Below the pieces are notes generated by a model. The model was not told the origin of the DNA. It searched no databases and saw only the letters and a list, made by a program, of their open reading frames with translations. Below, piece after piece: positions 5,816-58,782 of a stretch of 64,000 nucleotides of DNA (positions are counted from its first letter, which is position 1; the number at the start of each line of letters is the position of its first letter). The position numbers and the translations under genes are program-made. Location: NCBI GenBank assembly GCA_036375075.1, contig DASUSN010000211.1, positions 8,075 through 72,074 of the forward strand, read 5' to 3'. Origin of the DNA: Thermoanaerobaculia bacterium (lineage in GTDB: Bacteria > Acidobacteriota > Thermoanaerobaculia > Gp7-AA8).

Positions 5816-5960
5816 GCTTCCCTATCGGCGGAAGGCTTCTGGTTCCTTCGTCCCGGAGGAACCAGAAGCGACGGAGTCGCCGTTCCTGGTGGCTCGCTAC
5901 CGGCGACGGGCCGGGCATGACGTCATGATTCGCCATCCATGGGTCATCTACACTCCCCGG

Positions 5961-8582
5961 ATGCCCGCATCCCCCGACCAGCCGCTCCGCGACGACGTTC
6001 ACCTCCTCGGCGATCTCCTCGGCCAGACTCTCTGCGCGCAGGAAGGAACGGAGCTCTTCGCGATGGTCGAGCGCGTGCGCGCGCTGGCGAAGAGCGGCCG
6101 CGCCGGCAACGCGGACGACTTCGATCGTCTCGCCGAACTGCTCGCCGCGCGGCCGACCTCGGAGACGCTGCCGGTGGCGCGGGCGTTCGCGCACTTTCTG
6201 AGCCTCGCCAACGTCGCCGAGCAGCACCACCGCGTCCGCCGCCGCCGCGACTATCAACGCGACCCGGACGCGCCGCCGCAGCCCGGCTCGTTCGACGAGG
6301 TCATGGCCCGGCTGCGCGAGCAGGGCGTCGCCGAGGACCGGCTGTTCGCGAGCGTCGCCTCGCTGCAGATCGAGCTCGTGCTCACCGCGCATCCGACGGA
6401 AGTCGTCCGCCGTACGCTCCTGCAGAAATACACGCGCATCGGCGAGCTGCTCGCGCGTCGCGATGGTGACCTGACCATCCCGGAGGAGCGCGAGACGGTC
6501 GACGAGCTGCGGCGAGAGATCACCTCGGCGTGGGAGACCGATGAAGTGCGTCACACGCGACCCACGCCGCTCGACGAGGTGAAAGGCGGCCTGTTCATCT
6601 TCGAGCAGACGCTGTGGGACGCGCTGCCGCGTTCCCTCCGCGCGCTCGACGGCGCGCTGCGCACGCACACCGGCCGCGCGCTGCCGGCAGACGCCGCGCC
6701 GATCCGCTTCGGCTCCTGGATCGGCGGCGATCGCGACGGAAACCCGAACGTCACCGCCGCCGTGACCGCCGACGCCTGCCTCCTCGCGCGCTGGGTGGCC
6801 GCCGACCTCTATCTTCGCGAGATCGACGCGCTCCGCTCGGAGCTGTCGATGAAGTCCGGCTCCGCCGAGTTGCCGTCCGTCGACGAGCCGTACCGGGCCG
6901 TGCTGCGCGACGTGCGCGACCGCCTGCGCCTGACCCGCGACTCGATCGAAGCCTCCCTGTCGGCGAACGCGGCATTCGGCACCCGCGGCGAGCTCCTCGA
7001 AACCGGCGACCTGCTCGAACCGCTCCTGCGCTGCCATCGCTCGCTGCATGACACCGGGAACGGCATCATCGCCGACGGCCGCCTGCTCGACATCATCCGC
7101 CGCGTCCACGCCTTCGGCCTCACGCTGGTCCGCCTCGACGTGCGCCAGGACTCCGCGCGGCACACCGCGCTCCTCGACGCCATCACCCGCCAGCTCGGCC
7201 TCGGCAGCTATGCCGAATGGAGCGAAGAGCAGCGCCAGGAGCTCCTGCTCCGCGAGCTCGCCTCGCGACGCCCGCTGATCCCGCGCGATCTCCAACTCGA
7301 CGACGACGCGCGCGACGATCTCGAGACCTTCCGCGCCATCGCCGCCATCCCCCGCTCCTCCCTCGGCGCATACGTCATCACCATGGCCGGCAACCCGTCG
7401 GACGTCCTCGCCGTCGCGCTGCTGCAGAAAGAGGCCGGCGTCGCCGAGCCGCTGCGCATCGTCCCGCTCTTCGAAACCATCGCCGACCTCCGCCGCGCCG
7501 GCGCGACGATGACCGACCTGCTGAGGATCGACACCTACCGCGCCGCCATCAACGGCCGCCAGGAAGTGATGGTCGGCTACTCCGACTCCTCGAAAGACTC
7601 CGGCCGCTTCACCGCCGCGTGGGAGCTCTTCCAGGCGCAGGAACAGATCGTCGCCGCCTGCCGCGCCGCCGAGGTCGAGTTGACGCTCTTCCACGGCCGC
7701 GGCGGAAGCGTGGGCCGAGGGGGCGGACCGACCTATCTCGCCATCGGGTCGCAGCCCCCCGGCTCCGTCGACGGCCGCCTGCGCGTGACCGTGCAGGGCG
7801 AAATGATCCAGGCCGAATTCGGCCTCGTCGGCATCGCATTGCGCACCCTCGAGGTCTACACCACCGCCACCCTCGACGCGACCCTCGCGCCGTCACCCGC
7901 GCCGCGTGACGAGTGGCGCACCGCCATGCAGCAGATGGCCGACGCCGCCGCGCGCGGCTACCGCTCGGTGGTCTACGAGACCCCGCGCTTCGTCGACTAC
8001 TTCCGCGCCGCGACGCCCGAGGCGGAGCTGGGCGAGATCAACATCGGCAGCCGCCCCGCGCGCCGCGGCGGCGGCAAACGCGGCGTCGAGTCGCTGCGCG
8101 CGATCCCGTGGCAGTTCGCCTGGACGCAGAACCGGCTGCTGCTGCCGTCGTGGCTCGGCGTCGACGACGCGCTCCTCGCGGGCGATCCGGCCATGCTCGC
8201 GACGATGATGAAAGAGTGGCCCTTCTTCCGCTCGACCATGGAGCTGATCGAGATGGTGCTGGCCAAGGCGGAGGCGCGCATCGCCGCCTACTACGACCGC
8301 CTCCTCGTCCCCGGCGATCTCCGCGACCTCGGCGAGTCGCTTCGCGAGCGCCTGCAGCGCACCGTCGAGCTGGTGCAGCGCGTGACCGGCCACGAACGTC
8401 TGCTCGAGATCAATCACGCCTTACGCCGCTCCATCGACGTGCGCAATCCCTACGTCGACCCGATCAACGTCGTGCAGGCCGAGGTCCTCCGCCGCCTGCG
8501 GCACGCACCGGACGACTCGTTGCGCGACGCCTTCATCACCACGGTCAACGGAATCGCGGCCGGCATGAGGAATACGGGGTAG
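5961..8582 (+). CDS. ppc: Phosphoenolpyruvate carboxylase
   Basis: 'VLTAHPTE', 'VMVGYSDSSKDSG', 'FHGRGGSVGRGGGP' and C-terminal 'NGIAAGMRNTG'. Start placed at ATG 5961 (MPASPDQPLRDDVHLLG); the ORF-track start at 5889 is less likely. Confidence 0.95.
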   Translation: MPASPDQPLRDDVHLLGDLLGQTLCAQEGTELFAMVERVRALAKSGRAGNADDFDRLAELLAARPTSETLPVARAFAHFLSLANVAEQHHRVRRRRDYQRDPDAPPQPGSFDEVMARLREQGVAEDRLFASVASLQIELVLTAHPTEVVRRTLLQKYTRIGELLARRDGDLTIPEERETVDELRREITSAWETDEVRHTRPTPLDEVKGGLFIFEQTLWDALPRSLRALDGALRTHTGRALPADAAPIRFGSWIGGDRDGNPNVTAAVTADACLLARWVAADLYLREIDALRSELSMKSGSAELPSVDEPYRAVLRDVRDRLRLTRDSIEASLSANAAFGTRGELLETGDLLEPLLRCHRSLHDTGNGIIADGRLLDIIRRVHAFGLTLVRLDVRQDSARHTALLDAITRQLGLGSYAEWSEEQRQELLLRELASRRPLIPRDLQLDDDARDDLETFRAIAAIPRSSLGAYVITMAGNPSDVLAVALLQKEAGVAEPLRIVPLFETIADLRRAGATMTDLLRIDTYRAAINGRQEVMVGYSDSSKDSGRFTAAWELFQAQEQIVAACRAAEVELTLFHGRGGSVGRGGGPTYLAIGSQPPGSVDGRLRVTVQGEMIQAEFGLVGIALRTLEVYTTATLDATLAPSPAPRDEWRTAMQQMADAAARGYRSVVYETPRFVDYFRAATPEAELGEINIGSRPARRGGGKRGVESLRAIPWQFAWTQNRLLLPSWLGVDDALLAGDPAMLATMMKEWPFFRSTMELIEMVLAKAEARIAAYYDRLLVPGDLRDLGESLRERLQRTVELVQRVTGHERLLEINHALRRSIDVRNPYVDPINVVQAEVLRRLRHAPDDSLRDAFITTVNGIAAGMRNTG

Positions 8583-8736
8583 GCAGCCGGAAGGAACCGG
8601 CGATGCATCTCTCAGGTCTGCGTCAATACGACCACTTCATCGCCCGCGCCGAACGTCCGCGCAGAATGAGCCGTTCAATCTTTGAAACGATCCCGCAGCC
8701 GCCGCATGCTACTGCGAGGTTGCGGAAAGGCGCGGA

Positions 8737-9270
8737 CTACGGCGTAAGCAACACCTGATTCCCGGTGACGATCGGCACGTCGCTCTTCTTCATATCGCGA
8801 TCGTCGGTTACTAGGAGACACGACTTCGATCGGCAGGTCTCGACGATCAGCAAGTCGTTGAAGTCTGCACCGCCTGCTTCGAACGCCGCCAGAAAAGGTG
8901 AGAGACTGATGTTCGCGAATGCCGTACCCGTTGGCTTGGCGACGCTGAGGATACTTCTCAGCGAGAGCGCGATGTCCTGCGCGACTGCCTTGAACCCGCC
9001 GCTGTTACGGAACGCTTTGAAATCGCTGCCGCCCGTACGCCGGAACTCGAAGCGAGCCCACGTGTTCGCGAACTCCGACATCACGAGTGCGTCGACAAAG
9101 GTCGGAGCCTTGCTCGATCGGAGACGCTTCACGGCGTCGGAGTAAAGCTGCACCCGCGGGTCGCCGGGAGGCGTCGGACCGTAAACGAGAAACCAGACGT
9201 TCGTATCGAGGAAGTAGCTCGCGGTCGAGTCGAACGCGTACGAACTGATGTCGTACCGCGGAGGTGTCAC
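8737..9270 (-). CDS. PIN-domain ribonuclease (VapC-like toxin candidate)
   Basis: Four acidic positions in PIN order: D in 'FLDTNVW', E in 'MSEFAN', D in 'DFNDLLIV', D in 'VTDDRD'. GTG start at 9270 overlaps the upstream TGA (GTGA). Confidence 0.75.
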   Translation of the reverse strand: MTPPRYDISSYAFDSTASYFLDTNVWFLVYGPTPPGDPRVQLYSDAVKRLRSSKAPTFVDALVMSEFANTWARFEFRRTGGSDFKAFRNSGGFKAVAQDIALSLRSILSVAKPTGTAFANISLSPFLAAFEAGGADFNDLLIVETCRSKSCLLVTDDRDMKKSDVPIVTGNQVLLTP

Positions 9271-9611
9271 TCGTTGAGGGCTCCTGATACGGCAGCTCGG
9301 TACTGCTCTGGATTGCGAAAGAACTCCTTCGCCCGTTCGACGACGCGTTTCAGGAGAAGCAGATGATCGCCCTCCGCATCGGTCACCCGAAGATGCTTTC
9401 GGATCACGTCCTCGTCGAACTCGCCGTAAAGCTGGCCGATCGCTGCGTTGAGAAACGCCGATGTCACGTCCTCGATGCCAGAGAACGAGACAACCACGTC
9501 ATCCTCACGCCGCAGAGCTGTGGCGATCAGATCGTGGACCGCACTGCCGTCCGCGGAGGAAACGGAATGAGGGCTTCCAAGCGCGGCAAGCAAGCTGATG
9601 GATACGCTCAT
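9267..9611 (-). CDS. STAS-like small protein (DUF4325-type)
   Basis: 114 aa. 'DDVVVSFSGIEDVTSAFLNAAIGQLYGEF' matches the DUF4325/STAS-like pattern as I remember it. ATG lies 8 nt after the stop of the ATPase gene; the stop overlaps the PIN start. Confidence 0.6.
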   Translation of the reverse strand: MSVSISLLAALGSPHSVSSADGSAVHDLIATALRREDDVVVSFSGIEDVTSAFLNAAIGQLYGEFDEDVIRKHLRVTDAEGDHLLLLKRVVERAKEFFRNPEQYRAAVSGALNE

Positions 9612-9619
9612 TTGATGGA

Positions 9620-10474
9620 TCAGAAGATCGCCGCCGGGTCGACCTCGCCAGCAAGCTGGTACATCTTACTATCGGCCGTGTTGATTTCGATGTCCACGAC
9701 GGTGCCGGGGAATGGCGCCGCGAGCTTAGCCTTCCCTACGTTCGTCGCCCGGACCCACCAGTAACCACTCTCGGACGCCACTCGGATGGCTCCTCCGTTC
9801 TGTGCGATGAAGTCGCGGATGATCTTCAGCCCCAGCCCACCGGGTACTCGATCCGCGACACGCCGGGTCGTGTTCTGACCGGTCATCGCCCAGTCGATCG
9901 CCTCCGGAGCGGCCAACGCTTGCCCGAGATAGCCGCGCACGCTCGCCGGAATTCCGATCCCTCGGTCAGCCAGGCAGAAATGGAGCCGCTGTTTGGTGGG
10001 GAAGAACTGCCCGCACGCAAAGATGCCGAGTTGCGTTTTCGAGTGGGTCACAGCGTTCTCGAACAATTCGAAGATGCTTCGCCGGAACTCGCGCTGGAGG
10101 CCGACCGTCATGACGGGCAACCCCTTGCCGCGGAAGTTCTGCTCGACGTACGACTTGAAGTCGGCGCTACCCGTCACATCGAACTGTTGGAGGTGAATCG
10201 TGGTTCGATGCGTGTCATCGAGTGCGCCACCGAGGAAACCGTTCTTCCGCAAAATCGTCTCGATCGTCGGCCGCAGTTGTTGAAGAATGATGCGGCGTCC
10301 AGGCGCGACGATCGCGGCAGCGAGTGGCGCGCACATGTTCGCGTCCAGCCACGCGAGACGGCTGCAGTCGACGAGTACGTCACCGGCAGATTCTCGCTCG
10401 ATCGCCGCGTGAATACGGGCGAGATCGTCGAACCCGTCCTGGTCCGTGTTAATCCGATAGGCGTTGATTCTCAT
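9620..10474 (-). CDS. STAS-like N-terminal region fused to a GHKL (RsbW/SpoIIAB-like) ATPase/Ser-kinase domain
   Basis: N-box 'ELFENAVTHS', G1 'ADRGIGIP', G2 'PGGLGLKII'. The N-terminal 'VLVDCSRLAWLDANMCAPL' is STAS-like. ATG 10474 is preceded by AGGAAG. The ORF-track start at 10570 is a GTG without a visible SD. Confidence 0.75.
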   Translation of the reverse strand: MRINAYRINTDQDGFDDLARIHAAIERESAGDVLVDCSRLAWLDANMCAPLAAAIVAPGRRIILQQLRPTIETILRKNGFLGGALDDTHRTTIHLQQFDVTGSADFKSYVEQNFRGKGLPVMTVGLQREFRRSIFELFENAVTHSKTQLGIFACGQFFPTKQRLHFCLADRGIGIPASVRGYLGQALAAPEAIDWAMTGQNTTRRVADRVPGGLGLKIIRDFIAQNGGAIRVASESGYWWVRATNVGKAKLAAPFPGTVVDIEINTADSKMYQLAGEVDPAAIF

Positions 10475-10742
10475 CTTCCTGTGCTCCGGTGAGCCGTACA
10501 CCGTTGCAACCGACGCCACCGCGCGTAACGTCCTCAGAAGTGTCGCACGATCCGCGATGACGAGCTTCACGGCTTCGCGAACGGCCTCTGCCCACCGACC
10601 TTAGACACGTTCAGGCGCGCCGTCGCCGGACGGTGCATCGCCGCGCGACAGACCTGTGCGTGTGTCGCTAACTCCGCAGGTACTGCTCCGTACAGCCGCG
10701 TAATCGAAGGGCTGACCCCACCTAAATTCTCTGGTTAACGGC

Positions 10743-11072
10743 AGTCGGCAAACTTGCCCCACCGGTAGGCGAGCTTGCCCAACTGGTGGGCAACACTGGT
10801 GAGCCCGGTCGGCAAACTCGCACCGCGGGTCGGCAACACTGGTCACGGCGGCGGGCAAGGTCGCCCAGCCGGTGGGTAACACTGGTCAAGCCGGCTGGCA
10901 AACTCGCCCAGCCGGTGGGCATCACTGGTCAAGCCGGCCGGCAACTCGCCCAGCCGGTGGGCAACACTGGTCACGGCGGTGGGCAAGTTCGCCCAACCGG
11001 TGGGCAACACTGGTAACCCCGGCTGGCAAACTCGCCCAATCGGTGGGCAAGCTTACCCACCGGCTGGCATGG
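10743..11072. repeat. Tandem array of about 16 phased 20-22-bp units (43-bp double unit)
   Basis: GGCAA-type cores at 10748, 10768, 10789, 10811, 10832, 10854, 10875, 10897, 10918, 10940, 10960, 10982, 11003, 11025, 11046 and 11066. Type A (CCGGTGGGCAACACTGGTCA) alternates with type B (CCGGCTGGCAAACTCGCCCAG). Several units are internally palindromic (TGGGCAAGTTCGCCCA). Confidence 0.9.
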
Positions 11073-11081
11073 ACGGACCCT

Positions 11082-11100
11082 CCCCGCGCTTTTCGCGGGG
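11082..11100 (-). terminator. Possible terminator hairpin after the uvrA-like gene
   Basis: CCCCGCG-CTTTT-CGCGGGG stem-loop about 65 nt downstream of the stop at 11164. No U-tract. Confidence 0.3.
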
Positions 11101-11163
11101 CGAGGCGAGGATGGCCGAAGGCCGGTGAGAGACGCTCTCGCCTAAAGTGAACGCCATTGGGGG

Positions 11164-13557
<2,394 letters not shown>

Positions 13558-13569
13558 GGGGGCTCCAGT

Positions 13570-13695
13570 TCCTTGGGAGTTCCTCGGGTTCCTCGGTTCC
13601 TCGGAGTTCCTCGGGGGGGATGAGAGCTCCGAGGAGCCCCGAGGAACTCCGAGGAACCCGAGGAACTCCGAGGAACCCGAGGAACCGAGGAACTG
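13570..13695. repeat. Hairpin with tandem-repeat arms, unit GAGGAAC(Y)CC
   Basis: Left arm GGAGTTCCTCGGGTTCCTCGGTTCCTCGGAGTTCCTCGGGG pairs with right arm CCCCGAGGAACTCCGAGGAACCCGAGGAACTCCGAGGAACCCGAGGAACCGAGGAACT. Same unit as 58690-58782. Confidence 0.85.
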
Positions 13696-13705
13696 CTCGC
13701 ACGCT

Positions 13706-14121
13706 TCAGCGCAATTCCTGGATGCGGATCATGTTGCCCGCGGGATCGCGGAAGGCGCAGTCGCGGACGCCGTAGGGCTGGTCGGTGGGCTCCTGGACGA
13801 CCTCGGCGCCGCTGGCTTCCAGCTTGGCGAAGGTGGCGTCGAGGTCGGCGGTGGCGAGGTTGACGCCGAAGTAGCTGCCCTTGGCCATCAGCTCGTGAAT
13901 GGTGCGGCGCTCGTCGTCGGTGATGCCGGGGGCGGCGGCCGGCGGGTGCAGGACGATGGAGGTGTCGCGCTGGCCGGCGGGGCCGACGGTGATCCAGCGC
14001 ATGCCCTGGTAGCCGACGTCGTTGCGGACCTCGAAGCCGAGGGTGTCGCGGTAGAAGGCCAGGGAGGCGTCGGGGTCGCTGTGCGGCAGGAAGCTCGAGT
14101 GAATGGTGATGTTCATGCCGG

Positions 14122-14125
<4 letters not shown>
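13706..14125 (-). CDS. VOC (glyoxalase/bleomycin-resistance/dioxygenase) family protein
   Basis: 139 aa. 'SLAFYRDTLGFEV' and 'YGVRDCAFRDPAGNMIRI' are typical of the VOC fold. Confidence 0.85.
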
Positions 14126-14598
<473 letters not shown>

Positions 14599-14604
<6 letters not shown>

Positions 14605-14702
14605 CCTGAGCCGGCGTAGCGCGGCGAAGGACCCCCTGCGGTTCGCGACGACCGCGCATCTATCAGGGGGGTCCTTCGCCGTCTACGCGGCTCAGGATGA
14701 CA
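14599..14702. mobile_element. MITE/REP-like palindromic element, TGTCATCCTGAGCCG family (copy A)
   Basis: About 37-nt terminal inverted repeats: TGTCATCCTGAGCCGGCGTAGCGCGGCGAAGGACCCCC ... GGGGGGTCCTTCGCCGTCTACGCGGCTCAGGATGACA. Second copy at 54717-54821 in the opposite orientation. Confidence 0.8.
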
Positions 14703-14736
14703 GAGCGATTCGCGCACTTTGGAGTGCCCGACACGC

Positions 14737-15849
14737 TCATCTGTCGAGCAGCGGAGGGCCGCCTTTAAGAGCGCGACCGGACCTGTGCAGGTACTGGATC
14801 TCGACATTCCAGCCGCCGCGTACCGCGCGCCGCGCGTTAAAAAGCATTCGATTCGGAAACAACGACTCCGAATCGACGATGAGTGGTGGCCGGCCTTCTC
14901 CTCGGAACGACTCCGGCGCGATGGCCTGGAGCGCTTCGGCCGATCCACTCGAGAATACGGAATGATGTGTGGCGAGGCGAAGCACTCCCTTTGCCCAACG
15001 CTTGTGACGGACGATGAACCGAGTGAGCAAGCGCAGGTCGCGGAGGATCGCCCTTTTGTTTTGCGCCATTCCAAAGAACCTTCGAAGCGCTGAGACCTCC
15101 AAGAAGTGAGCATCGTCGAGCATCTCGTCTACGCGCTCATGGAATGCCGCATCATTGGAAGCGGAAGCGGCAAAGCCGGGCATGTTCACGTTGTTCGTAT
15201 AGCCGGCACGCAACGCAGCCAATACCGCAAGACGTGCAGCGGCTTCTGCCGAGAACTTCGCATTTTCCAGGGAAGAAATCATCCCGTGTGAAACGTCGAC
15301 GCCGAGGTCGACCTCGGCTTGCTCGCGCGAAGCGAGGATCAACAGGTAGGTCTGCCACGCGAGCTGATGCAGCGCGGTCCATGTCGCTTCGATTGTGAGG
15401 GCCTGGTCGAAGTCCGACTTTGGCGTGATCAGTCCTACGGAATCCATGACGGATTCATACATCGGCTCGAAGTATCGATCCACCGCGCTCCACAGCCCGC
15501 CGGTTCTATCGACGATCCGCAGTCGCTTGCGAAACGACGGAGCCGCCAACTCACGCAATCGGCGAGCGTGTGCCCAGGCGTCGCTTGCTGTCGCGGGAAT
15601 GATCACCTTGGTCGCGCCGCGCTCGACAAAGGTCGACAGCGAAGCGTTCAAGGCCGATCCGGCAATCGCCTGACTTTCTGCCCTGACAGGTTCGCCTTCC
15701 AGAAACGCTGACGACAACCCACTCGCTCGAAAGAAGTCCTCGCCTGTCCAGCGGAGAGGGACAGATAAACGCGGCTCCATGACGACGATATTTGCGAGCA
15801 TGCCCTCATTGTCTCGCACGGCGTCCACGTACGCGCCACGGTACGCCAC
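14737..15849 (-). CDS. Hypothetical protein, no recognisable domain (start uncertain)
   Basis: 370-aa ORF with visibly lower G+C than the flanks. Divergent from the SIR2-STAND gene. Candidate starts are GTG 15849, ATG 15801 and ATG 15780, none with a convincing SD. Confidence 0.5.
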   Translation of the reverse strand: MAYRGAYVDAVRDNEGMLANIVVMEPRLSVPLRWTGEDFFRASGLSSAFLEGEPVRAESQAIAGSALNASLSTFVERGATKVIIPATASDAWAHARRLRELAAPSFRKRLRIVDRTGGLWSAVDRYFEPMYESVMDSVGLITPKSDFDQALTIEATWTALHQLAWQTYLLILASREQAEVDLGVDVSHGMISSLENAKFSAEAAARLAVLAALRAGYTNNVNMPGFAASASNDAAFHERVDEMLDDAHFLEVSALRRFFGMAQNKRAILRDLRLLTRFIVRHKRWAKGVLRLATHHSVFSSGSAEALQAIAPESFRGEGRPPLIVDSESLFPNRMLFNARRAVRGGWNVEIQYLHRSGRALKGGPPLLDR

Positions 15850-15946
15850 GGCGAGACGGGCTGCTGCGCCTGTCGAATCGCCAGGTTTTTGGCCGTGCCG
15901 GGTAGGGAAATGGCCGCGCCGGGCCTCTCATGCTGTAGAGGGTCTC

Positions 15947-18900
15947 ATGAGCCGTATCGTCGGGTTCGGCGCGGAGAGGATCGAGCTGCCGTTTCATGCC
16001 GGTCGCGAGGCTGTCGACGAGCGCCGGCGCGTGATGCTCGCGCGCTGTTTGAACCTTCAGACCACGGTGGCTTTCCTCGGCAGCGGATGCTCGGCGCCGC
16101 TCGGCTACCCGCGCTGGCTCGACTTCACCCGTGGCGTGGTGGCCACCACCGCCACCGCTCTTGGCGAGTGCTCCGACTTTGTCCATCAGGAGCTCCGGTC
16201 GCGGCTGGAGAGGATCGCCGCCCGTCTTGCGCGAGCTCCCGCGCCGTCGACGCCGGACATGCTCTTCCATCTGGGGCTGTGCCAGCGCATCGGGAACGAT
16301 CTGGCCCGGGAGCACGGCGCGCCGAATCCGTACGATGACTATCTCCGCGTGACGTTCGGGCGCCCTGACACCGTGGAGCGTCCGGTCGACCCGGAGAACA
16401 ACCCTCACCACGCGCTACTCGAGCTGCCGATCAAGCGGTTCGTCACCACGAACTACGACGTCGAGCTCGAGCTTGCGCTGAGCACCCGCCACGCGGGGCT
16501 CCGGCCCCGCTCCTTCACGCAACGCTCCGAGCACTACGACGAGCTGGCCGCCTTCGCGCTCGCGCACATCCCCGGCACGGAAAACATGGTGTTCCACTGT
16601 CACGGCCGTTATGACGACCTGCCGACGATCGTGGCCACGGAAGCCGACTACCAGCGGTGGTACGTCGACGAGAGCGATCCCGCGGCCGAGACCTTCCGCC
16701 AGAGCCTGCGCCTCCTCTTCGGGTCGAACCCGATTTTTTTCATTGGCTTCGGCATGGAGGACTACGACCTGCTCGCTCCCCTGCGGCTGTTGAATACGGA
16801 TCGCACCCAGCAGCGCACGCGCGCGCGCCAGTTGTTCGCCCTCATGCCGGAGGCCGAGGGCGACGACGAGGCGCGGGATCGGAGCGACCAGCTTTACGAG
16901 CGGTACGGGGTGCACGTGATTCCATACCGCAAGCCGGACGGCGGCGCGTCCGAGTGGGGGCGCGCGCTCTGCCGGGCGCTGAAGCAGATTCGCAACGAGT
17001 GGTGCGATGCCCGCGACGAGTTCCTCGCCAAACCCGTCATCCGTAAAGTGAGCGTCCCGGCACGGCCGCGGGAGCCTTATCTCCACTACGCGCTGGACCG
17101 CGGCGACGCGGCCGACATCGCGCCCGAACGGACGAAGGAGGATCTGCGGGAGCTGCAGAAGCTGATCGCCGAGCCGGGCATCGTCGTGGTGTACGGCTCG
17201 GGCGGCAGCGGCAAGAGCTGGCGCGTCCTCGAGCTGCTCGATCGCGTGCAGCAGAACCGCGGATCGTTCCAGTTCCACGGCGTGTTTTTCTGGTCCTCCT
17301 ATTACGCCGACGATTGGCTCACGGGACTGGACCGGGTTCTGACTTACCTCGACAGCCCCATCCGCCCGCGCTCGACGCGTCTGCAGCGTTTCGAGGACTC
17401 GCTCAAAGAGCGGCACCTGATCGTCTTCGACGGGTTCGAGCGGCTGCTGCGCGAGAAAGGAGCGGTCGAGGCGGGGACTCCCTACAGCCGCGCCGTGGAG
17501 CGCATCCTCGAGATGGCCCGAGACGGCGAGTCAACGGTGGTGCTGACGACGCGGCTGCAGCCGGACGTCCTGGAAGAGGGCAAGCGCGTACGTCTCTTTC
17601 CGATGCGGCGCCTCACCACCGAGGATCTCGAGAAGGGGCAACCGTTCGCGTCTCTGCAGCGCCAGGGACTGACGGTCGACGACGTCAGTGCGCTCTGCTC
17701 CCTCTGCGAAGGCCACAGTTATGCGCTCGCCCTGGCGGCGGCACACATCGGCGCCGCCGGTCCGGCTCACGTGGTCGACCGGATGACGCGGTTGCGGCGG
17801 GAGCTCTCGCTGGTCTCGCCGGCGCGGCGCATCGCGCAGGTCATCAGGATGGCGATCGAAGACGTCCGCGCCCGCACGAGTCCGAAAACCACGGAGCTCC
17901 TGGAGCGCCTGTCCATCTTCATGAGTCCCGCCACCGATGCCACGATCGAGATCTGTTGGGGCGACGAGCCGCACCTCGACGATGCCCTCGACGCGCTCCG
18001 CACGGCGCGCTTGATCTTCCCGGTGCAGGCGCATCCCGCCGGGGGCACGGAGCCCGGCTACACGGTCCATCCCACCGTGCGCACGTACATGTTCCACCAG
18101 GATCGCTGGGAGGAATCGGATTCGCTGCCGAACTTCACGCTGGCCGGCTTCACCTCCGGCAACGCACCCGTCCATCCCGGGAAGGGGAAACCTCTCCGGA
18201 TCTTCAAGAGCGTTTTCGAGCTCCTCTGCCACGCCGCCGAGCGCGCCATGGACGAGGGACAGACCGACAAAGCGCGCGAGCTCTGTCGCAGCGCGTTCGG
18301 AGTGCTCCGCTCGCGCACCGAAGCCAATTCCGCGGCGCGATGGACGAACTACGACGACTACATCGATCGTGGCGTCAAGCTCTCCAACCTCCTCAAGCGC
18401 GTCTCACCCCCGATGTGGGACTACCTCGAGCGTCTCCACGCGCAGACCAAGGAATTGCCCGAGGGACCTCTGCACGCCGACGAACTGGCGTGGTTGTGGA
18501 ACGACATCGGGCTGGCCTTCTACGCCCAGGGCGCCATGGCCGACGCGTACGCGGTGTGGGAGCTCGGCTACGAGATCACGAAGGTCACCGACAGCGAAGA
18601 AGGCGGCCAGTACACCGTCCAGTCGCAGCTCGAGATGATGGGGGTGTTCCTGGAGATGGGCCGGCTGGGCACGGCCGCGGAGTACCTGACGCAGGCGGAG
18701 AAAGCGAACGAGAAATACGGCGACCGCGACTATCGCGCCCGGTTGATGGGCTACCGCGGGCTGCTCGCCCATCTGCGGAACAACTTCGACGAGGCCGAGA
18801 CCCTGTACGCCGAGGCGCTGGAGCTGTTGCGGCGATCGGGAAAGCGGAACCTGCGCGCGATGAGCATCTTCACGCAGCACTGGGCCGACCTCAAGCTCGC

Positions 18901-19393
18901 GAAGAAAGAGCTCGAGGAGGCCCGGGACCTCATCCGCAGCAGCACGTCCATGGCGAATGAAGGCGGTCATGTGGACCTGGTGGCGTACGCGCGGAACTCG
19001 CACGCCCACCTTCTGCGCGCGCAGCGCCAGTACGTGGAGGCGCAGGCGGAGTACCGGTCGATTCTGGAGGAGGCGCGAAGGATCGGCCTCCGGCGGCTGG
19101 AGGCGGACGTACTGTCCGAGATGGCGCGCCTGGCGCTGGAGCTGGGCGACTGGAACACGGCGCGCACCCGGGCCATCAACGCGCTGATGGTCGCCAATGG
19201 ACTCGGCCTCGGCCTCCGCCGCACCCATGGTCTCGTCGTTCTCGGCCTGGCCATGATCCAGGCCCGCAACCCGAAGCTGGGAGCCGCGTATCTGCGGCAT
19301 GCGTGGAGCCTCGCGCGCACGCAGGGGTATCAGCTCCGGGCGGACGAGGCGGCGCGCAGGCTTCGCGAGATCGGTGAAGAACTCCCGGCCTGA
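15947..19393 (+). CDS. SIR2-like domain + NB-ARC/STAND NTPase + TPR array (Avs / bacterial NLR-like protein)
   Basis: SIR2_2-type motifs 'FLGSGCSAPLGYPRW', 'FVTTNYD', 'FHCHGRYDD' and 'IFFIGFGMEDYDL'. Walker A 'YGSGGSGKS', Walker B 'LIVFDGFE', 'VVLTTR', GLPL-like 'CEGHSYALALAA'. About 350 C-terminal residues are TPR-like helices. Start taken at ATG 15947 (MSRIVGF). Confidence 0.85.
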   Translation: MSRIVGFGAERIELPFHAGREAVDERRRVMLARCLNLQTTVAFLGSGCSAPLGYPRWLDFTRGVVATTATALGECSDFVHQELRSRLERIAARLARAPAPSTPDMLFHLGLCQRIGNDLAREHGAPNPYDDYLRVTFGRPDTVERPVDPENNPHHALLELPIKRFVTTNYDVELELALSTRHAGLRPRSFTQRSEHYDELAAFALAHIPGTENMVFHCHGRYDDLPTIVATEADYQRWYVDESDPAAETFRQSLRLLFGSNPIFFIGFGMEDYDLLAPLRLLNTDRTQQRTRARQLFALMPEAEGDDEARDRSDQLYERYGVHVIPYRKPDGGASEWGRALCRALKQIRNEWCDARDEFLAKPVIRKVSVPARPREPYLHYALDRGDAADIAPERTKEDLRELQKLIAEPGIVVVYGSGGSGKSWRVLELLDRVQQNRGSFQFHGVFFWSSYYADDWLTGLDRVLTYLDSPIRPRSTRLQRFEDSLKERHLIVFDGFERLLREKGAVEAGTPYSRAVERILEMARDGESTVVLTTRLQPDVLEEGKRVRLFPMRRLTTEDLEKGQPFASLQRQGLTVDDVSALCSLCEGHSYALALAAAHIGAAGPAHVVDRMTRLRRELSLVSPARRIAQVIRMAIEDVRARTSPKTTELLERLSIFMSPATDATIEICWGDEPHLDDALDALRTARLIFPVQAHPAGGTEPGYTVHPTVRTYMFHQDRWEESDSLPNFTLAGFTSGNAPVHPGKGKPLRIFKSVFELLCHAAERAMDEGQTDKARELCRSAFGVLRSRTEANSAARWTNYDDYIDRGVKLSNLLKRVSPPMWDYLERLHAQTKELPEGPLHADELAWLWNDIGLAFYAQGAMADAYAVWELGYEITKVTDSEEGGQYTVQSQLEMMGVFLEMGRLGTAAEYLTQAEKANEKYGDRDYRARLMGYRGLLAHLRNNFDEAETLYAEALELLRRSGKRNLRAMSIFTQHWADLKLAKKELEEARDLIRSSTSMANEGGHVDLVAYARNSHAHLLRAQRQYVEAQAEYRSILEEARRIGLRRLEADVLSEMARLALELGDWNTARTRAINALMVANGLGLGLRRTHGLVVLGLAMIQARNPKLGAAYLRHAWSLARTQGYQLRADEAARRLREIGEELPA

Positions 19394-19673: not shown

Positions 19674-19722
19674 CCTGGACCCGGCTCAGGATGACAGCGC
19701 GATAAGGCGTGCGAATACGAAA

Positions 19723-22938: not shown

Positions 22939-23258
22939 GAACGCGGTCCTCCCTCAATCACGCGGAGCGACTCGCGGAAGCGGCGCTGCTCGCGCCCTCT
23001 CCGCCAGAAGCTCCAGAACATTGCAACGAATCCGATCTGCACGAACCCGACGACGCCGAGGAGGAACAGGATCCCGTTGTTGGCGCCCTTGACCAGCGGA
23101 TCGCCCGGCGCGCCGTAGCAGACCGAGCAGGCGAACGCGTGCGGAGCCAGGATCAGCACGATCGCGAGAACGAGCAATCGAGTCTTCGGGTCTTCGAGTC
23201 TTCGAGAGACCCGATCGAAGACTCGACGACTCGGCGACTCGGCGACTCGGCGACTCAT
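22935..23258 (-). CDS. Small membrane protein with CxxC motif (start ambiguous: ATG 23258 or TTG 23177)
   Basis: Core sequence LLVLAIVLILAPHAFACSVCYGAPGDPLVKGANNGILFLLGVVGFVQIGFVAMFW. ATG 23258 forms an ATGA overlap with the upstream stop, but the first about 27 codons would then be encoded by the hairpin 23179-23256. Confidence 0.45.
   Translation of the reverse strand: MSRRVAESPSRRVFDRVSRRLEDPKTRLLVLAIVLILAPHAFACSVCYGAPGDPLVKGANNGILFLLGVVGFVQIGFVAMFWSFWRRGREQRRFRESLRVIEGGPRS
23179..23256. repeat. Hairpin with tandem-repeat arms, unit GAGTCTTCG
   Basis: CGAGTCTTCGGGTCTTCGAGTCTTCGAGAG pairs with CGATCGAAGACTCGACGACTCGGCGACTCGGCGACTCGGCGACTC. Confidence 0.75.
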
Positions 23259-26543: not shown

Positions 26544-26636
26544 ATAGGACGTATAGGACCTATAGGACCTATAGGACCTATAGGACGAATAGGACTGAGC
26601 TTGTCCTATGGGTCCTATTCGTCCTATTCGTCCTAT
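26544..26636. repeat. Hairpin with tandem-repeat arms, unit ATAGGACNT (9 nt)
   Basis: ATAGGACGTATAGGACCTATAGGACCTATAGGACCTATAGGACGAATAGGAC / loop TGAGCTT / GTCCTATGGGTCCTATTCGTCCTATTCGTCCTAT. Confidence 0.9.
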
Positions 26637-26638
26637 TG

Positions 26639-30805: not shown

Positions 30806-30810
30806 GGTGT

Positions 30811-30925
30811 CAGCTCTTAGGTGTTAGCTCTTAGCTCTTAGGAAATCCGGATTTCGTTCATGTCTCAGCGCCCTCGCCTGTCGCCCGTAGCTCCTGAGAG
30901 CTAAGAGCTAACAGCTAAGAGCTAA
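30811..30925. repeat. Hairpin with tandem-repeat arms, unit AGCTCTT (7 nt), about 50-nt loop
   Basis: CAGCTCTTAGGTGTTAGCTCTTAGCTCTTAGG ... CCTGAGAGCTAAGAGCTAACAGCTAAGAGCTAA. The right arm contains the stop codon of the upstream gene. Confidence 0.85.
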
Positions 30926-33718: not shown

Positions 33719-34618
33719 CTTCGAGAGAGCATCCTTGGCCGCCGACCGCACCTGCAGCGAGGGGTCCCCTTGCGCGAGCGCTCCGAGGATGCCCGCCGCC
33801 TCCTCGGGCGCGACCTTTTTCAGCGCCGGGATCGCCGCGAGGATGGTCTGCTCTTTCTGCTCGGGCCGCATGCCTTCGACCCGATCCAGCCGGGACCGGT
33901 CGAGCATCTCCCGGAGCACGCCGACGGCGCGCGTGTCCCCCAGCCGGGCCAGGGCGATGGCGGCGTTGAAGCGCACGTCCGCGATCGGATCGGCCAGCGC
34001 GCCGGCGAGAGGCTCGACGGCGCGGCGGTCGCCGATCTCCCCCAGCGCGTACGCCGCCGCCTTCCGCACGTCCCGCTCGTCGGTCGAAAACGACTTCAGC
34101 AGCGGCGGCACGGCGGCCGGGTCGCGGAGACGCCCCAGCGCCAGCGCGGCGTAGATCCGCGCCTCCTGGGTCGGGTCGCCGAGAGCCTCGATGAGAAGCG
34201 GGGTCGCGCGGCGGTCGCCGAGATTGCCGAGGACCATGCTCAGGTACTGGCGGATGCGCGGGTCGTCGGTCTTCGCGTCGGTGTAGACCTTGGCGATGTC
34301 GTTGACCAGGTTCGGGTACTTCTTCGCCTCGCCGACGTTGATGAGCTGCGAGAGCTGATACGCCGCCTGCCAGCGCTCGCGGCGCCCGCCGGACTTCACC
34401 TCGTTCAGGTAGTCGGGGATGGTCTGCTCGTCCGAGGCGAGTTTGCCGAAGAGGAAGAAGATCCCCACCGCCACGGCGACGATGCCGAGGGGGAAGATGA
34501 CGAACTGGAAAAGGATGGTGCGGGAGGATTCCTTCGGCACGTCCAGCGACGCGCCGGCATCGCCGGATTGAGGATTGAGGATTGAGGATTGAGGATGCTG
34601 CGGGTCGGGGCTCTTCAA
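33707..34618 (-). CDS. Membrane-anchored HEAT-repeat (PBS-lyase HEAT-like) protein
   Basis: TM 'ILFQFVIFPLGIVAVAVGIFFLF'. Repeats include 'DVRKAAAYALGEIGDRRAVEPLAGAL' and 'DVRFNAAIALARLGDTRAVGVL'. The annotated N-terminus is encoded by hairpin 34565-34649, so the true start is probably further in. Confidence 0.7.
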   Translation of the reverse strand: MKSPDPQHPQSSILNPQSGDAGASLDVPKESSRTILFQFVIFPLGIVAVAVGIFFLFGKLASDEQTIPDYLNEVKSGGRRERWQAAYQLSQLINVGEAKKYPNLVNDIAKVYTDAKTDDPRIRQYLSMVLGNLGDRRATPLLIEALGDPTQEARIYAALALGRLRDPAAVPPLLKSFSTDERDVRKAAAYALGEIGDRRAVEPLAGALADPIADVRFNAAIALARLGDTRAVGVLREMLDRSRLDRVEGMRPEQKEQTILAAIPALKKVAPEEAAGILGALAQGDPSLQVRSAAKDALSKDAR

Positions 34619-34649
34619 TCCTCAATCCTCAATTCTCAATCCTCAATCC
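34565..34649. repeat. Hairpin with tandem-repeat arms, unit GGATTGA (7 nt)
   Basis: GGATTGAGGATTGAGGATTGAGGATTGAGGATG ... CTTCAATCCTCAATCCTCAATTCTCAATCCTCAATCC. Confidence 0.9.
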
Positions 34650-41822: not shown

Positions 41823-42956
41823 TCAGTGCGTGTGGGCGTGATCGTGGTCGTGGTCATGATCGTGCTGATGATCGTGACCATGACCGTGCGTGTGGCCGGC
41901 CATCCCCGACTCCACCTGCTCGACCACCTGCCGGGCGAGCTCGCGGAACGCGACTGACGCCACGGACTGCGGATCGCTGACGACGATCGGCTCGCCCGTA
42001 TCGCCGCCGACGACGACCTTCGGGTCGATCGGCACCTCGCCGAGGAACGGAACCCCGAGCATCTCCGCGGTCTTCTGTCCGCCGCCGTGGCCGAAGATCT
42101 CCTCCCGCTCGCCGCAATGGCGGCAGAGGAAGTAGCTCATGTTCTCGACGATGCCCAGGACCGGGACGTTCACCTTCCGGAACATCGCCAGCCCCTTGCG
42201 CGCGTCGATCAGGGCCACGTCCTGCGGCGTCGTCACGACCACCGCGCCCGTGAGGCCCGCCTTCTGCGTCAGCGTGAGCTGCGCGTCGCCCGTGCCCGGC
42301 GGGAGGTCGATGATCATGAAGTCAAGGGTGCCCCACTTCACGTCCGTGAGGAACTGGTCGATGGCCTTCATGACCATCGGTCCGCGCCAGATCACCGGCG
42401 TGTCCGGATCGGTGATGAGGCCGAGGGACATGGTCTTGATGCCGTGGCGCTCCATGGGGACGATCTTCTCGTCCGCCTCGTCGATCTGCGGACGGCCCTC
42501 GATGCCCAGCATCATCTGCTGCGAGGGACCGTAGATGTCCGCGTCGAGCAGCCCGACCGTGTAGCCGAGCGACCGCAGCGCGAGGGCGAGGTTCGTGGAC
42601 ACCGTCGATTTCCCGACGCCCCCTTTGCCCGAGGCGACCGCGATGCGGTACTTCACGCCGCTGAGGGCGGACGGCTGCATCGCGGCGGTGCCGCTCGAGA
42701 CCGCGCCCTGCTTCGCGCCGATCTCGAGATTGACCTGCACGTCCTTGACGCCTTCCAGCGCGCGGACGGCCGCCTCGGCGTCGCGGGCGATCTGCTGGCC
42801 CACGCTCGGATTCTCCGTCTGGAAGTGAATGGTGAACGCGACCGTGCTGCCCTCGACGCGCACGTCCCGGACGAACCCGAACGACACGATGTCGCGCGAG
42901 AGGCCGGGGAATTTGACCTTCTTCAGCGCGTCAAGAACCTGTTCCTGTGTTGGCAT
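41823..42956 (-). CDS. mrp: Mrp/NBP35 (ApbC) Fe-S cluster carrier ATPase with His-rich C-terminal tail
   Basis: 'IAVASGKGGVGKST' and 'CRHCGE'. N-terminal DUF59-like region. Tail HTHGHGHDHQHDHDHDHDHAHTH. Confidence 0.9.
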   Translation of the reverse strand: MPTQEQVLDALKKVKFPGLSRDIVSFGFVRDVRVEGSTVAFTIHFQTENPSVGQQIARDAEAAVRALEGVKDVQVNLEIGAKQGAVSSGTAAMQPSALSGVKYRIAVASGKGGVGKSTVSTNLALALRSLGYTVGLLDADIYGPSQQMMLGIEGRPQIDEADEKIVPMERHGIKTMSLGLITDPDTPVIWRGPMVMKAIDQFLTDVKWGTLDFMIIDLPPGTGDAQLTLTQKAGLTGAVVVTTPQDVALIDARKGLAMFRKVNVPVLGIVENMSYFLCRHCGEREEIFGHGGGQKTAEMLGVPFLGEVPIDPKVVVGGDTGEPIVVSDPQSVASVAFRELARQVVEQVESGMAGHTHGHGHDHQHDHDHDHDHAHTH

Positions 42957-43701
42957 CTGCTCTCTCCTGTGGAAGCCACCGTTCGTACGACTCGCGGATG
43001 ATCGGAATGGCTTCGTCGGAGGAGCCGACGACCTTGATCACGTCGAAGTCGGGCGGGCTGACCAGGCCGCGCTCGACCATCGTCGCGCGCATCCACTCGA
43101 TCAGACCGGGCCACATTGTACCCACCAGGATGAGCGGATGCTCCTTCATGTGCTTGACCTGGAGAAGCTGCCAGACCATGAACAGCTCGAGGGCGGTGCC
43201 GATGCCGCCGGGAAAGACGATGAAGGCGGACGACAGCCGGATGAAATGGTGGAGCCTGCTGAAGAACGTCCGGTGCCGGAACACCTTGTCCACGAACGGG
43301 TTCGCCGACTCCTCGGTCGGCAGATGGATGGCCAGGCCGAACGAGCGCGACTTGCCCTCCGCCCGCCCTTCGACCGCGCCGGCGTTGGCCGCTTCCATGA
43401 GGCCCGGCCCGCCGCCGGTGACGATGTCGACGCCGAGGCGGGAGAGCTCGGTGGAGAGCTTCTTGACCTCTTCGTAGATCGGATCCCCGCGGCGGATGCG
43501 CGAGCTGCCGAAGATGGAGACGCGGTAGTGCTCGACGCGCTCGGGCTGGATCTGGTCGAGATCGTTGATGGTCTCCCAGAGCTGGTAGATCGCGCGGTCG
43601 AGGACGTGAGTCGGATCGAGCGCGGCCGGCTGCTTCTTCGCGGCCTGGGCGGTGCGCAGCTCTTCCAGCTCGGGAGTGGTGGTTCGACGATTACGGGCCA
43701 T
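42931..43701 (-). CDS. LOG-family (TIGR00730) nucleotide phosphoribohydrolase
   Basis: 'VTGGGPGLMEAANAGA' and 'FPGGIGTALELF'. 26-nt overlap with mrp. Confidence 0.85.
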   Translation of the reverse strand: MARNRRTTTPELEELRTAQAAKKQPAALDPTHVLDRAIYQLWETINDLDQIQPERVEHYRVSIFGSSRIRRGDPIYEEVKKLSTELSRLGVDIVTGGGPGLMEAANAGAVEGRAEGKSRSFGLAIHLPTEESANPFVDKVFRHRTFFSRLHHFIRLSSAFIVFPGGIGTALELFMVWQLLQVKHMKEHPLILVGTMWPGLIEWMRATMVERGLVSPPDFDVIKVVGSSDEAIPIIRESYERWLPQERADANTGTGS

Positions 43702-49269: not shown

Positions 49270-49406
49270 CCGGGTATGGAGTGCGAGTCTTCGAGCCGTC
49301 GAGTCTTCAAGTCTTCGAGTCTTCAAGTCTTCAAGTCTTCAAGTCGTCGAGAAGCTCTCGACGACTCGACGACTCGACGACTCGAAGACTCGCACTCCAT
49401 ACCCGG
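49270..49406. repeat. Hairpin with tandem-repeat arms, unit GTCTTCRA (8 nt), perfect 26-nt outer stem
   Basis: CCGGGTATGGAGTGCGAGTCTTCGAG...(GTCTTCAA)n...(CGACTCGA)n...CTCGAAGACTCGCACTCCATACCCGG. Confidence 0.9.
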
Positions 49407-53617: not shown

Positions 53618-53712
53618 CGAGTCGTCCAGTCGGCGAGTGATCGAGTCGTCAAGAAGCTCACGAAGACTCGACGGCTTGAAGACTGGACGGCTCGACGGCT
53701 CGAAGACTCGCA
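53618..53712. repeat. Imperfect hairpin, GAGTCGTC/GAAGACTCG-type arms
   Basis: It exactly fills the gap between the methyltransferase stop and the glycosyltransferase ATG. Related to 23179-23256 and 49270-49406. Confidence 0.65.
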
Positions 53713-54858: not shown

Positions 54859-55082
54859 GGGGAGCGTGGCACGGACGCTAGCGGAGCGCCGGCATCCTGC
54901 CGGCCGCTACGCCGGCTTCCAGCCGGCACGCCTCTCGCGAGAACCCGGGCCGCCTGGAAGGCGGCGTAGCGGCCGGCTGGAAGCCGGCGCTCCGCAGGAC
55001 GGCCGGTCGCCCCCCTATGGAGTGCGGAGGCGTTCCCTCCACACTCCAAACGGCGTCGCGTGGCGCGAAACGTGCCACGCCT
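54859..55082. repeat. Cluster of nested palindromes
   Basis: About 47-nt arms GCGGAGCGCCGGCATCCTGCCGGCCGCTACGCCGGCTTCCAGCCGGC / GCCGCCTGGAAGGCGGCGTAGCGGCCGGCTGGAAGCCGGCGCTCCGC (54881-54995). TGGAGTGCGGAGG/CCTCCACACTCCA (55018-55047). Outer GCGTGGCACG/CGTGCCACGC. Confidence 0.75.
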
Positions 55083-58689: not shown

Positions 58690-58782
58690 GGAGTTCCTCG
58701 GTCCCTCGGTTCCTCGGAGTTCCTCGGGTGGGGGTCCACTCCGAGGAACTCCGAGGAACCCCGAGGAACCCGAGGAACTCCC
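58690..58782. repeat. Hairpin with tandem-repeat arms, unit GAGGAAC(Y)CC (second locus)
   Basis: GAGTTCCTCGGTCCCTCGGTTCCTCGGAGTTCCTCGGGTGG ... CCACTCCGAGGAACTCCGAGGAACCCCGAGGAACCCGAGGAACTC. Confidence 0.85.

Follow-up and report, generated by a model that had tools for sequence, protein, structure and literature searches.

Phased palindromic repeats in orphan DNA at the apparent junction of two mobile modules in a Thermoanaerobaculia genome

Results

A 43-bp double-unit array between a uvrA-like gene and a GHKL-DUF4325-PIN operon

In a 64,000-nt stretch of a Thermoanaerobaculia contig (DASUSN010000211.1, forward-strand positions 8,075 to 72,074; hereafter the window, to which all coordinates refer unless a contig is named), a tandem array of short repeats lies between two sets of genes that are all transcribed from the minus strand. 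On its left is an operon of three genes, encoding a GHKL ATPase (9620-10474), a DUF4325/STAS-like protein (9267-9611) and a PIN protein (8737-9270). On its right follow genes for a uvrA-like ABC ATPase (11164-13557), a glyoxalase and an AraC protein, and then a SIR2-STAND gene (15779-19393). The intergenic stretch holding the array measures 689 bp, from the GHKL start (10474) to the uvrA-like stop (11164), and GC content in and around the array is 0.62-0.70. With its start codon at 10474 the GHKL protein has 284 rather than 316 amino acids, and 267 nt separate the array from this ATG; the array is thus not "directly" upstream of the operon, as a first-pass annotation of the sequence had put it.

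The array spans 10742-11069 (no strand assigned) and is made up of 15 full units, each 20-22 bp long, and a sixteenth that is truncated, with a 43-bp double-unit period and a higher-order period of 128/129 bp. Both the approximately 16 sites and the 43-bp super-repeat of the first-pass annotation are therefore borne out: Tandem Repeats Finder (TRF) reported a period of 43 with 6.4 copies over 10777-11050 (81% matches, score 331) and, in a second row, a period of 128 with 2.1 copies (84%, score 408), and in a repeat search the start-to-start spacings of the double units were 43, 43, 43, 42 and 43 bp. Parsed by hand, the 15 complete units (10742-11060; mean spacing 21.3 bp) fall into two types in the order B B A B A B A B A B A B A B B, all of them head-to-tail and abutting without spacers, which bears out the earlier view that this is not a CRISPR array of identical repeats with unique spacers. 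Six A+B double units of 42-43 bp, with a pairwise identity of 72-91%, form the core (10784-11040, no strand assigned); its A units start at 10784, 10827, 10870, 10913, 10955 and 10998 and its B units at 10806, 10849, 10892, 10935, 10977 and 11020. The strict A/B alternation described at first holds in this centre and fails at the ends, each of which has two B units. Those at the left edge (10742-10783, as 10742-10762 and 10763-10783) are among the most diverged units of the array, whereas the last complete B unit on the right (11041-11060) is part of its best palindrome (11040-11063). The truncated sixteenth unit, CGGCTGGCA, occupies 11061-11069; neither this nor the edge B units are assigned a strand. 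The helical phasing of the sites is numerically correct, but automatic for any tandem repeat of 21-22 bp.

This arrangement is far above chance, and the initial observation is real: unit A at up to three mismatches gave 6 matches against 0.01 expected from shuffles, and unit B gave 2 against 0.00. Moreover, an independent Logan contig (SRR25158397) is 100% identical across 800 nt including the entire array, which is therefore no assembly artefact. It is the sole second copy of the array and shows no difference in array length, although it may derive from the same sample. The consensus sequences of A and B are 73% identical along their full length and hence represent homologous variants of one unit. 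Double units three apart are among the most alike (0.88 and 0.86), and edge units are among the most diverged, a pattern that fits amplification of a 43-bp unit followed by duplication of a 128/129-bp block.

The array is non-coding

As the first-pass annotation had proposed, the array is non-coding. G+C content at third codon positions (GC3) is flat across it, at 0.63-0.66 in the frames of both strands, compared to 0.97 in the uvrA-like gene and 0.77 in the GHKL gene (0.77-0.97 in neighbouring genes). Several open reading frames (ORFs) of 55-93 amino acids cross parts of the array; none spans it, and the five that cross parts of it had no Pfam match even at E ≤ 1. The one reading that would make it a gene is a 43-amino-acid repeat read through three frames, for which speak these partial ORFs and the fact that 3 x 43 = 129 is a multiple of 3. 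Yet one 42-bp double unit breaks the 129-bp frame, and, together with the missing spanning ORF, the flat GC3 and the lack of Pfam matches, this effectively refutes a translated repeat protein, to which we give next to no credence.

Searches for RNA and transcription signals were likewise negative. With gathering thresholds Rfam had no match; relaxed to E ≤ 1, it yielded just miRNA/sRNA noise, far below the threshold of each family. No sigma-70-like promoter or intrinsic terminator was called in a scan of 10300-11300. By inspection, a GC-rich hairpin (CCCCGCG-CTTTT-CGCGGGG; 11082-11100, minus strand) lies beyond the uvrA-like stop, 64 nt in the downstream direction; it may be a terminator, but is devoid of a T run and went uncalled in the scan.

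Dyad symmetry resides in the DNA

The B units are imperfect palindromes, whose ideal site reads CCGGTGGGCAA-GC-TTGCCCACCGG (~22-24 bp). The best example in the array, at 11040-11063, reads TCGGTGGGCAAGCTTACCCACCGG and is self-complementary at 20 of its 24 positions; it comprises the last B unit with the preceding base and the next three. A units have kept the left half-site, CGGTGGGCAA, while their right half has diverged. When folded as single-stranded DNA, B units reached z-scores of -3.5 to -4.2, as against -1.2 and +0.4 for the weakly palindromic A units. The inverted repeat TGGGC-N6-GCCCA, noted at first in several units, is thus a property of the B units. The array as a whole folds nearly equally well on the two strands (-182.8 and -182.0 kcal/mol; z -3.8 and -4.2), and, as read from the sequence, the strand to gain from G-U pairs would be the plus strand in A units and the minus strand in B units. 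The equal fold on both strands and the opposed G-U bias argue that the symmetry is one of the DNA, and constitute no evidence for one particular RNA.

We compared the units for traces of selection. Among the six double units, a minimum of 22 substitution events fell in 16 of 43 columns; under uniform decay, both the number of invariant columns (P=0.28) and the longest invariant run (P=0.33) were as expected. Arm covariation was not detected in the nine B units, since 74 of 99 arm cells were Watson-Crick pairs, compared to 72.6 +/- 2.3 in column shuffles (P=0.34); one B-arm pair occurs as T-A four times and as C-G three times, which is not significant. Weak as these tests are, they offer no support for constraint on a binding core or for upkeep of a stem. 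A signal of intrinsic curvature through phased A/T fell short of significance at 10.75 bp (P=0.26) and was marginal at 21.5 bp (P=0.04).

Several known motifs were held against the half-site and rejected. The DnaA box (TTATCCACA/TTGTCCACA) agrees with the minus-strand half-site TTGCCCACC at 7 of 9 positions, with key positions mismatched. For a sigma-54 -24/-12 element the GG-to-GC spacing is wrong, and the DasR dre half-site ACTGGTC yields a short match only. AraC-type 21-bp direct repeats were dismissed as well, as the AraC gene, whose product was named earlier among the island-encoded proteins to try in binding assays, belongs to the uvrA-like module, whose relatives are without the array.

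The array is unique among the sequences searched

No match to the array was found by blastn in 72,556 plasmids (PLSDB) or 50,697 GenBank phages. An exact pattern of the A+B pair gave two single chance matches in the GTDB representative genomes, neither with a related array, four single chance matches in JGI metagenomes and none in IMG/VR. Nor did an approximate search (up to 4-5 mismatches) find units outside the array, whether across the 64-kb window or across 166 kb of cellular loci retrieved for comparison, 45 kb of which come from relatives with a 92% identical ppc. The dispersed repetitive extragenic palindrome (REP) that the first-pass annotation had considered as a counter-explanation was thus not encountered there.

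The half-site itself, CGGTGGGCA, has a single exact copy outside the array in the window (10589-10597, minus strand). It is located in a diverged part of the leader of the GHKL-DUF4325-PIN operon, where relatives read GAAGTAGGGC.

A motif shared with phage arrays was entertained and rejected. In IMG/VR, pairs of GGTGGGCAA spaced 11-14 nt apart occurred at 44 loci, several of them clear intergenic arrays; control 9-mers (reversed, shuffled) gave 36 and 20 loci in the same scan, which points to a background of short phased repeats in phage DNA. Two of these phage contigs (L030 and L040) carry 5-6 copies of ATTGGTGGGCAAAG at 21-22-bp spacing on the minus strand, from ~785 and ~7002 nt of that strand's start, with the start of a leftward gene on one side and a strong TTGACA-N17-TATAAT promoter on the other. 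They look like textbook operator/iteron arrays and have the 9-mer in common with the window only because the search was built on it.

An unrelated array was met in a relative of the operon (contig L004, positions 2-177). Its four 44-bp tandem units are palindromic and lie at the contig end, downstream of a patatin gene and 4.8 kb from the homologous operon, with the assembly probably broken inside the repeat. Having been found within only 167 kb of other cellular loci, it argues that such arrays are not rare and belong to the normal background.

Homology of both flanking modules ends short of the array

The host was placed in Thermoanaerobaculia (Acidobacteriota) by its PEP carboxylase relatives (84-94% identity). 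The window, which carries ppc, a two-component system, and cytochrome oxidase and bc-type complexes, is chromosomal.

On the left-hand side, the extent of a mobile GHKL-DUF4325-PIN cassette (8655-10586, minus strand) is set by nucleotide homology with L015, L016-L019 and L123. The match corresponds to window positions 8734-10573 in L015 (88% nucleotide identity), 8655-9838 in L016-L019 (93%) and 8682-10586 in L123 (91%). In L008 (79%) it runs exactly from the GHKL ATG to the PIN stop, and in L004-L006 (73%) from just inside GHKL to ~30 nt before the PIN stop. Taken together, these relatives (73-93%) are homologous only over the three genes and their immediate edges, beginning ~100-150 nt upstream of the GHKL start and ending shortly after the PIN stop; judged by a three-way alignment, weak homology of the leader may reach ~10620 at most. 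None of the cassette relatives (L004-L008, L015-L019 and L123) has the array, which speaks against the functional tie to the GHKL/STAS/PIN operon assumed at first, as well as against a role of the sites as operator or upstream activating sequence (UAS) of that operon, for which co-inheritance would be expected. Upstream of the relatives' cassettes are unrelated genes, among them a 265-aa ORF, an HNH gene and an EcoRII/Vsr restriction-modification system; of the 265-aa and HNH genes, which precede the cassette there, tblastn detected no remnant here.

To the right, L009 and L010 match the uvrA-like module at 89% nucleotide identity, a homology that ends with the stop codon (11162-11171). Neither of these relatives has the array; downstream of their uvrA-like gene lie toxin-antitoxin genes, or a tRNA and an integrated element. 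Close ppc relatives (92%), for their part, have only ppc (5948-8586) in common with the window. Given these homology boundaries, the array belongs to neither the cassette, nor the uvrA-like module, nor the native ppc gene. It sits in ~540-590 bp of orphan DNA at the seam of two independently mobile modules, inside an 11-kb variable island around which no convincing att-like direct repeats were found.

With its sharp homology edges and without a recombinase of its own, the GHKL-DUF4325-PIN trio behaves as a discrete ~1.9-kb cassette. Its PIN protein fits the "PIN.4" group, which is coupled to DUF4325 genes and whose function is unknown (PMC5499597), and PADLOC gave no match on the cassette. In different genomes the cassette adjoins varied defence-type neighbours, namely an EcoRII/Vsr restriction-modification system, Fic, patatin, and an AAA_15 ATPase with an HNH nuclease. 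The trio looks like an undescribed partner-switch-like defence or toxin-antitoxin module.

The AraC-glyoxalase-UvrA-like module (11164-14604) seems to be a drug- or DNA-damage-resistance-type module that was acquired recently, possibly from an Actinomycetota source. GC3 of the uvrA-like gene is 0.96-0.97, and its product, which matches the PADLOC models mad3 and mad8, shares 87-91% identity with proteins assigned by name to Micromonospora, Streptomyces, Nonomuraea and Actinomadura. In L010, a tRNA gene and an integrated element with RES, SeqA-like and UDG genes (9206-9739) follow just downstream of the uvrA-like gene, whose 3′ side is a recurrent insertion point. The 1204-aa SIR2-STAND/NACHT-TPR protein encoded at 15779-19393, with matches to the ThsA/Dsr1/LmuA-like SIR2 models of PADLOC, falls within the same 11-kb variable island, flanked by ppc and by the SCO1/cytochrome oxidase genes.

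Hairpin and palindromic elements elsewhere in the window

At least nine tandem-repeat hairpins of another design occur in the window (13558-13700, 23178-23256, 26544-26637, 30806-30925, 34565-34649, 49284-49392, 53661-53710, 54888-54988 and 58693-58781). In each, 3-7 copies of a 7-11-nt unit are followed within 10-60 nt by the reverse-complement run, giving stems of 30-60 bp. Their unit sequence differs at nearly every site, and their places are the spacers that separate co-directional genes, as is the case all along the cytochrome oxidase/bc operon. To our knowledge, no described family matches them. Because the related genome L020 has one too (2518-2600), they look like a habit of the lineage. 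One of them, a GTTCCTCGG/CCGAGGAAC hairpin between the glyoxalase and uvrA-like genes (13558-13715), uses a unit that recurs at 58693-58781. At its place, L009 (7937-8000) has a spacer of only 64 nt, though the module is 87-89% identical in nucleotides, and hence the hairpin entered or arose after acquisition of the module. This suggests that the tandem-repeat hairpins are mobile or actively generated.

A 107-nt palindromic element resembling a MITE (miniature inverted-repeat transposable element) or REP lies at the AraC end of the uvrA module (14597-14703; CTGTCATCCTGAGCCGG ... GGCGAAGGACCCCCTG ... CAGGGGGGTCCTTCGCC ... CGGCTCAGGATGACAG). A partial copy at 19679-19703, just past the SIR2-STAND gene, means that the two window copies bracket that gene, and a 75% identical copy is found upstream of ppc in the related genome L020 (9812-9908).

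Discussion

A private minisatellite as the tentative reading

We tentatively read the array, with a confidence just short of even, as a lineage-private non-coding minisatellite that was amplified from one palindromic site at a module junction and whose effect, if it has any, would be structural. An imperfect palindrome of ~22-24 bp (CCGGTGGGCAA-GC-TTGCCCACCGG) would have been duplicated first, one copy then losing its right half-site to become the A variant. Replication slippage or unequal recombination would next have amplified the 43-bp A+B double unit, and a 128/129-bp block of three double units may later have been duplicated again. The setting would be orphan DNA at the junction of two horizontally acquired modules, within a defence island of a Thermoanaerobaculia chromosome. 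There, 330 bp of GC-rich, hairpin- or cruciform-prone palindromes, flanked on the same strand by the 3′ hairpin of the uvrA-like gene and by the cassette leader, could act as a buffer against supercoiling or transcriptional read-through, as might the many other hairpin-rich intergenic elements of this genome; at least nine hairpin-forming tandem-repeat elements in intergenic spacers of the same window are in line with this. Both this amplification history and the structural or buffering role are what we infer from the repeats and their setting, and any effect of the array is most likely physical.

Bacterial intergenic minisatellites, or variable-number tandem repeat (VNTR) loci, include the mycobacterial arrays of MIRU type, a dispersed family present at dozens of loci. 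The array resembles these in its direct intergenic repeats (40-100 bp in MIRU/VNTR loci), diverged units, degenerate edges, higher-order periodicity and lack of a dedicated partner gene, and it has the make-up of a VNTR locus in general, namely non-coding head-to-tail repeats of 10-100 bp with diverged units. It differs from MIRU in that no second locus was found here and in that its units are built of palindromic half-sites.

Several points weigh against this reading. Dyad-symmetric units at a constant two-turn spacing have the look of an array of sites for a dimeric DNA-binding protein, and at least 15 units were kept while diverging to 72-91% identity, so that their retention could have been selected for. 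Both selection tests were low-powered, with 6-9 related units. The exact half-site in the cassette leader is 145 nt from the array, a proximity unlikely by chance with 0.92 copies expected per 64 kb. The unit search covered 64 kb of this genome, and dispersed copies may exist elsewhere. Finally, the buffering role is one that we infer. The array is nonetheless best filed as an ordinary bacterial intergenic minisatellite, with a modest chance of its being something more.

Alternative readings

An unlikely alternative, albeit one with a real chance of being correct, is a multi-site platform for a dimeric DNA-binding protein, be it a cooperative operator or silencer, a sopC-like centromere or a set of iterons. 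Here, a protein filament would assemble along one face of the DNA on ~15 half-sites spaced by two helical turns, and would insulate or regulate the adjacent cassette. The significant palindromes of the B units, the spacing kept at 20-22 bp (42-43 bp for the double unit) and the extra half-site in a leader whose sequence is different in relatives all accord with this, and phage contigs show many 21-22-bp phased motif arrays between divergent genes, a common regulatory design. The sopC centromere of the F plasmid is one parallel, with 12 direct 43-bp repeats each containing a 16-bp inverted repeat bound by SopB (PMC3177203). The array shares with it the 43-bp period (6.4 x 43 bp), an inverted-repeat site within tandem direct repeats and a total length of a few hundred bp, but differs in its two site variants per 43-bp unit, its chromosomal context next to ppc and the cytochrome oxidase operon, and the lack of sopA/sopB-type genes. 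Indeed, a Pfam scan of ~40 window ORFs found no ParB, the sole ParA-family match in the window is an Mrp/NUBPL-type Fe-S protein 31 kb away (41826-43037), and the plasmid and phage searches revealed no relationship to known centromere repeats. Plasmid iterons are 17-22-bp direct repeats at origins, those of R6K for instance being seven repeats of 22 bp. The 21-22-bp head-to-tail unit and its helical phasing (20-22 bp) match this design, whereas no rep gene was found in the window, GC content (≥0.62) leaves no AT-rich unwinding element here, and DnaA boxes are not evident. In form, then, the array is closest to sopC and iterons, whose defining companions were looked for and not found; the likeness to iteron, centromere or operator drawn by the first-pass annotation holds for shape and not for par or rep genes, an AT-rich region, or a plasmid or phage context. 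Further points against a platform are the failure to find a candidate partner or to assign a regulator, the absence of the array from all relatives of the cassette and the uvrA module, the lack of a conserved-core signature and of arm covariation, the lack of a promoter-like site in or beside the array, and the background level of the 9-mer in phage arrays. In a more specific form, which we consider very unlikely, a dimeric host protein would polymerise on the ~15 CGGTGGGCAA half-sites of a chromosomal sopC-like platform and silence or insulate the captured cassette, with the leader half-site at 10589-10597, carried by this genome alone, as regulatory contact point. Should the array in fact load a protein, it would be unusually large for a chromosomal binding platform, and it would lie at a defence island's edge in a poorly studied phylum, Acidobacteriota.

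It is quite unlikely, if somewhat less so than this specific form, that the array acts as a transcribed repeat RNA of the minus strand, produced by read-through from the uvrA-like gene or from a promoter of its own. Such an RNA might be a string of hairpins that stabilises, terminates or attenuates transcription, or a series of 43-nt RNAs that, like a type III antitoxin or a protein sponge, restrain an RNase such as PIN. In favour of an RNA, the array is in line with the uvrA-like gene and the cassette, all co-directional on the minus strand, it folds strongly (z about -4), and hairpin repeats populate many co-directional intergenic spacers of this genome. Type III toxin-antitoxin loci, moreover, carry tandem RNA repeats (ToxI) upstream of an endoribonuclease gene (PMC8860590), and the array is like them in its ~35-45-nt tandem units upstream of, and co-directional with, a defence-type operon that includes an RNase-fold PIN. 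In contrast to such loci, the array travels with the cassette in no relative, and the adjoining gene, 267 nt off, encodes a GHKL ATPase rather than a ToxN-like toxin; no co-inherited repeat upstream of a ToxN/AbiQ/CptN/TenpN-type endoribonuclease, and no PADLOC match, was found. Structure equal on two strands with opposed G-U preferences, the empty Rfam search and the lack of a called promoter or intrinsic terminator also count against an RNA. A slimmer chance still is that we see a local cluster of a dispersed REP/BIME- or MIRU-like family (BIME, bacterial interspersed mosaic element), spread by a RAYT-type transposase or by recombination. Short GC-rich imperfect palindromes of 20-40 nt, regularly spaced in extragenic DNA just 3′ of a gene, are typical of REPs, and BIMEs, too, alternate two variants; as REP families are species-specific, absence from other genomes would be expected, and the lineage has other dispersed palindromic elements such as the 107-nt element at 14597-14703, also present in L020. 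BIME REPs, however, alternate in orientation and exceed 100 copies per genome (PMC2817692, PMC3733652), whereas the units here are direct and have no GTAG/CGTC end tag (by inspection, the array contains one GTAG and no CGTC). In a partial test of copy number, no further copy was found in the 64 kb of contig and 166 kb of loci, including the 45 kb from close relatives.

If the minisatellite reading is right, a tidy phased array beside a defence-like operon would be corrected from an operator or centromere to seam DNA. The same homology boundaries would also cleanly delimit a ~1.9-kb GHKL-DUF4325-PIN cassette that appears to move without a recombinase gene of its own.

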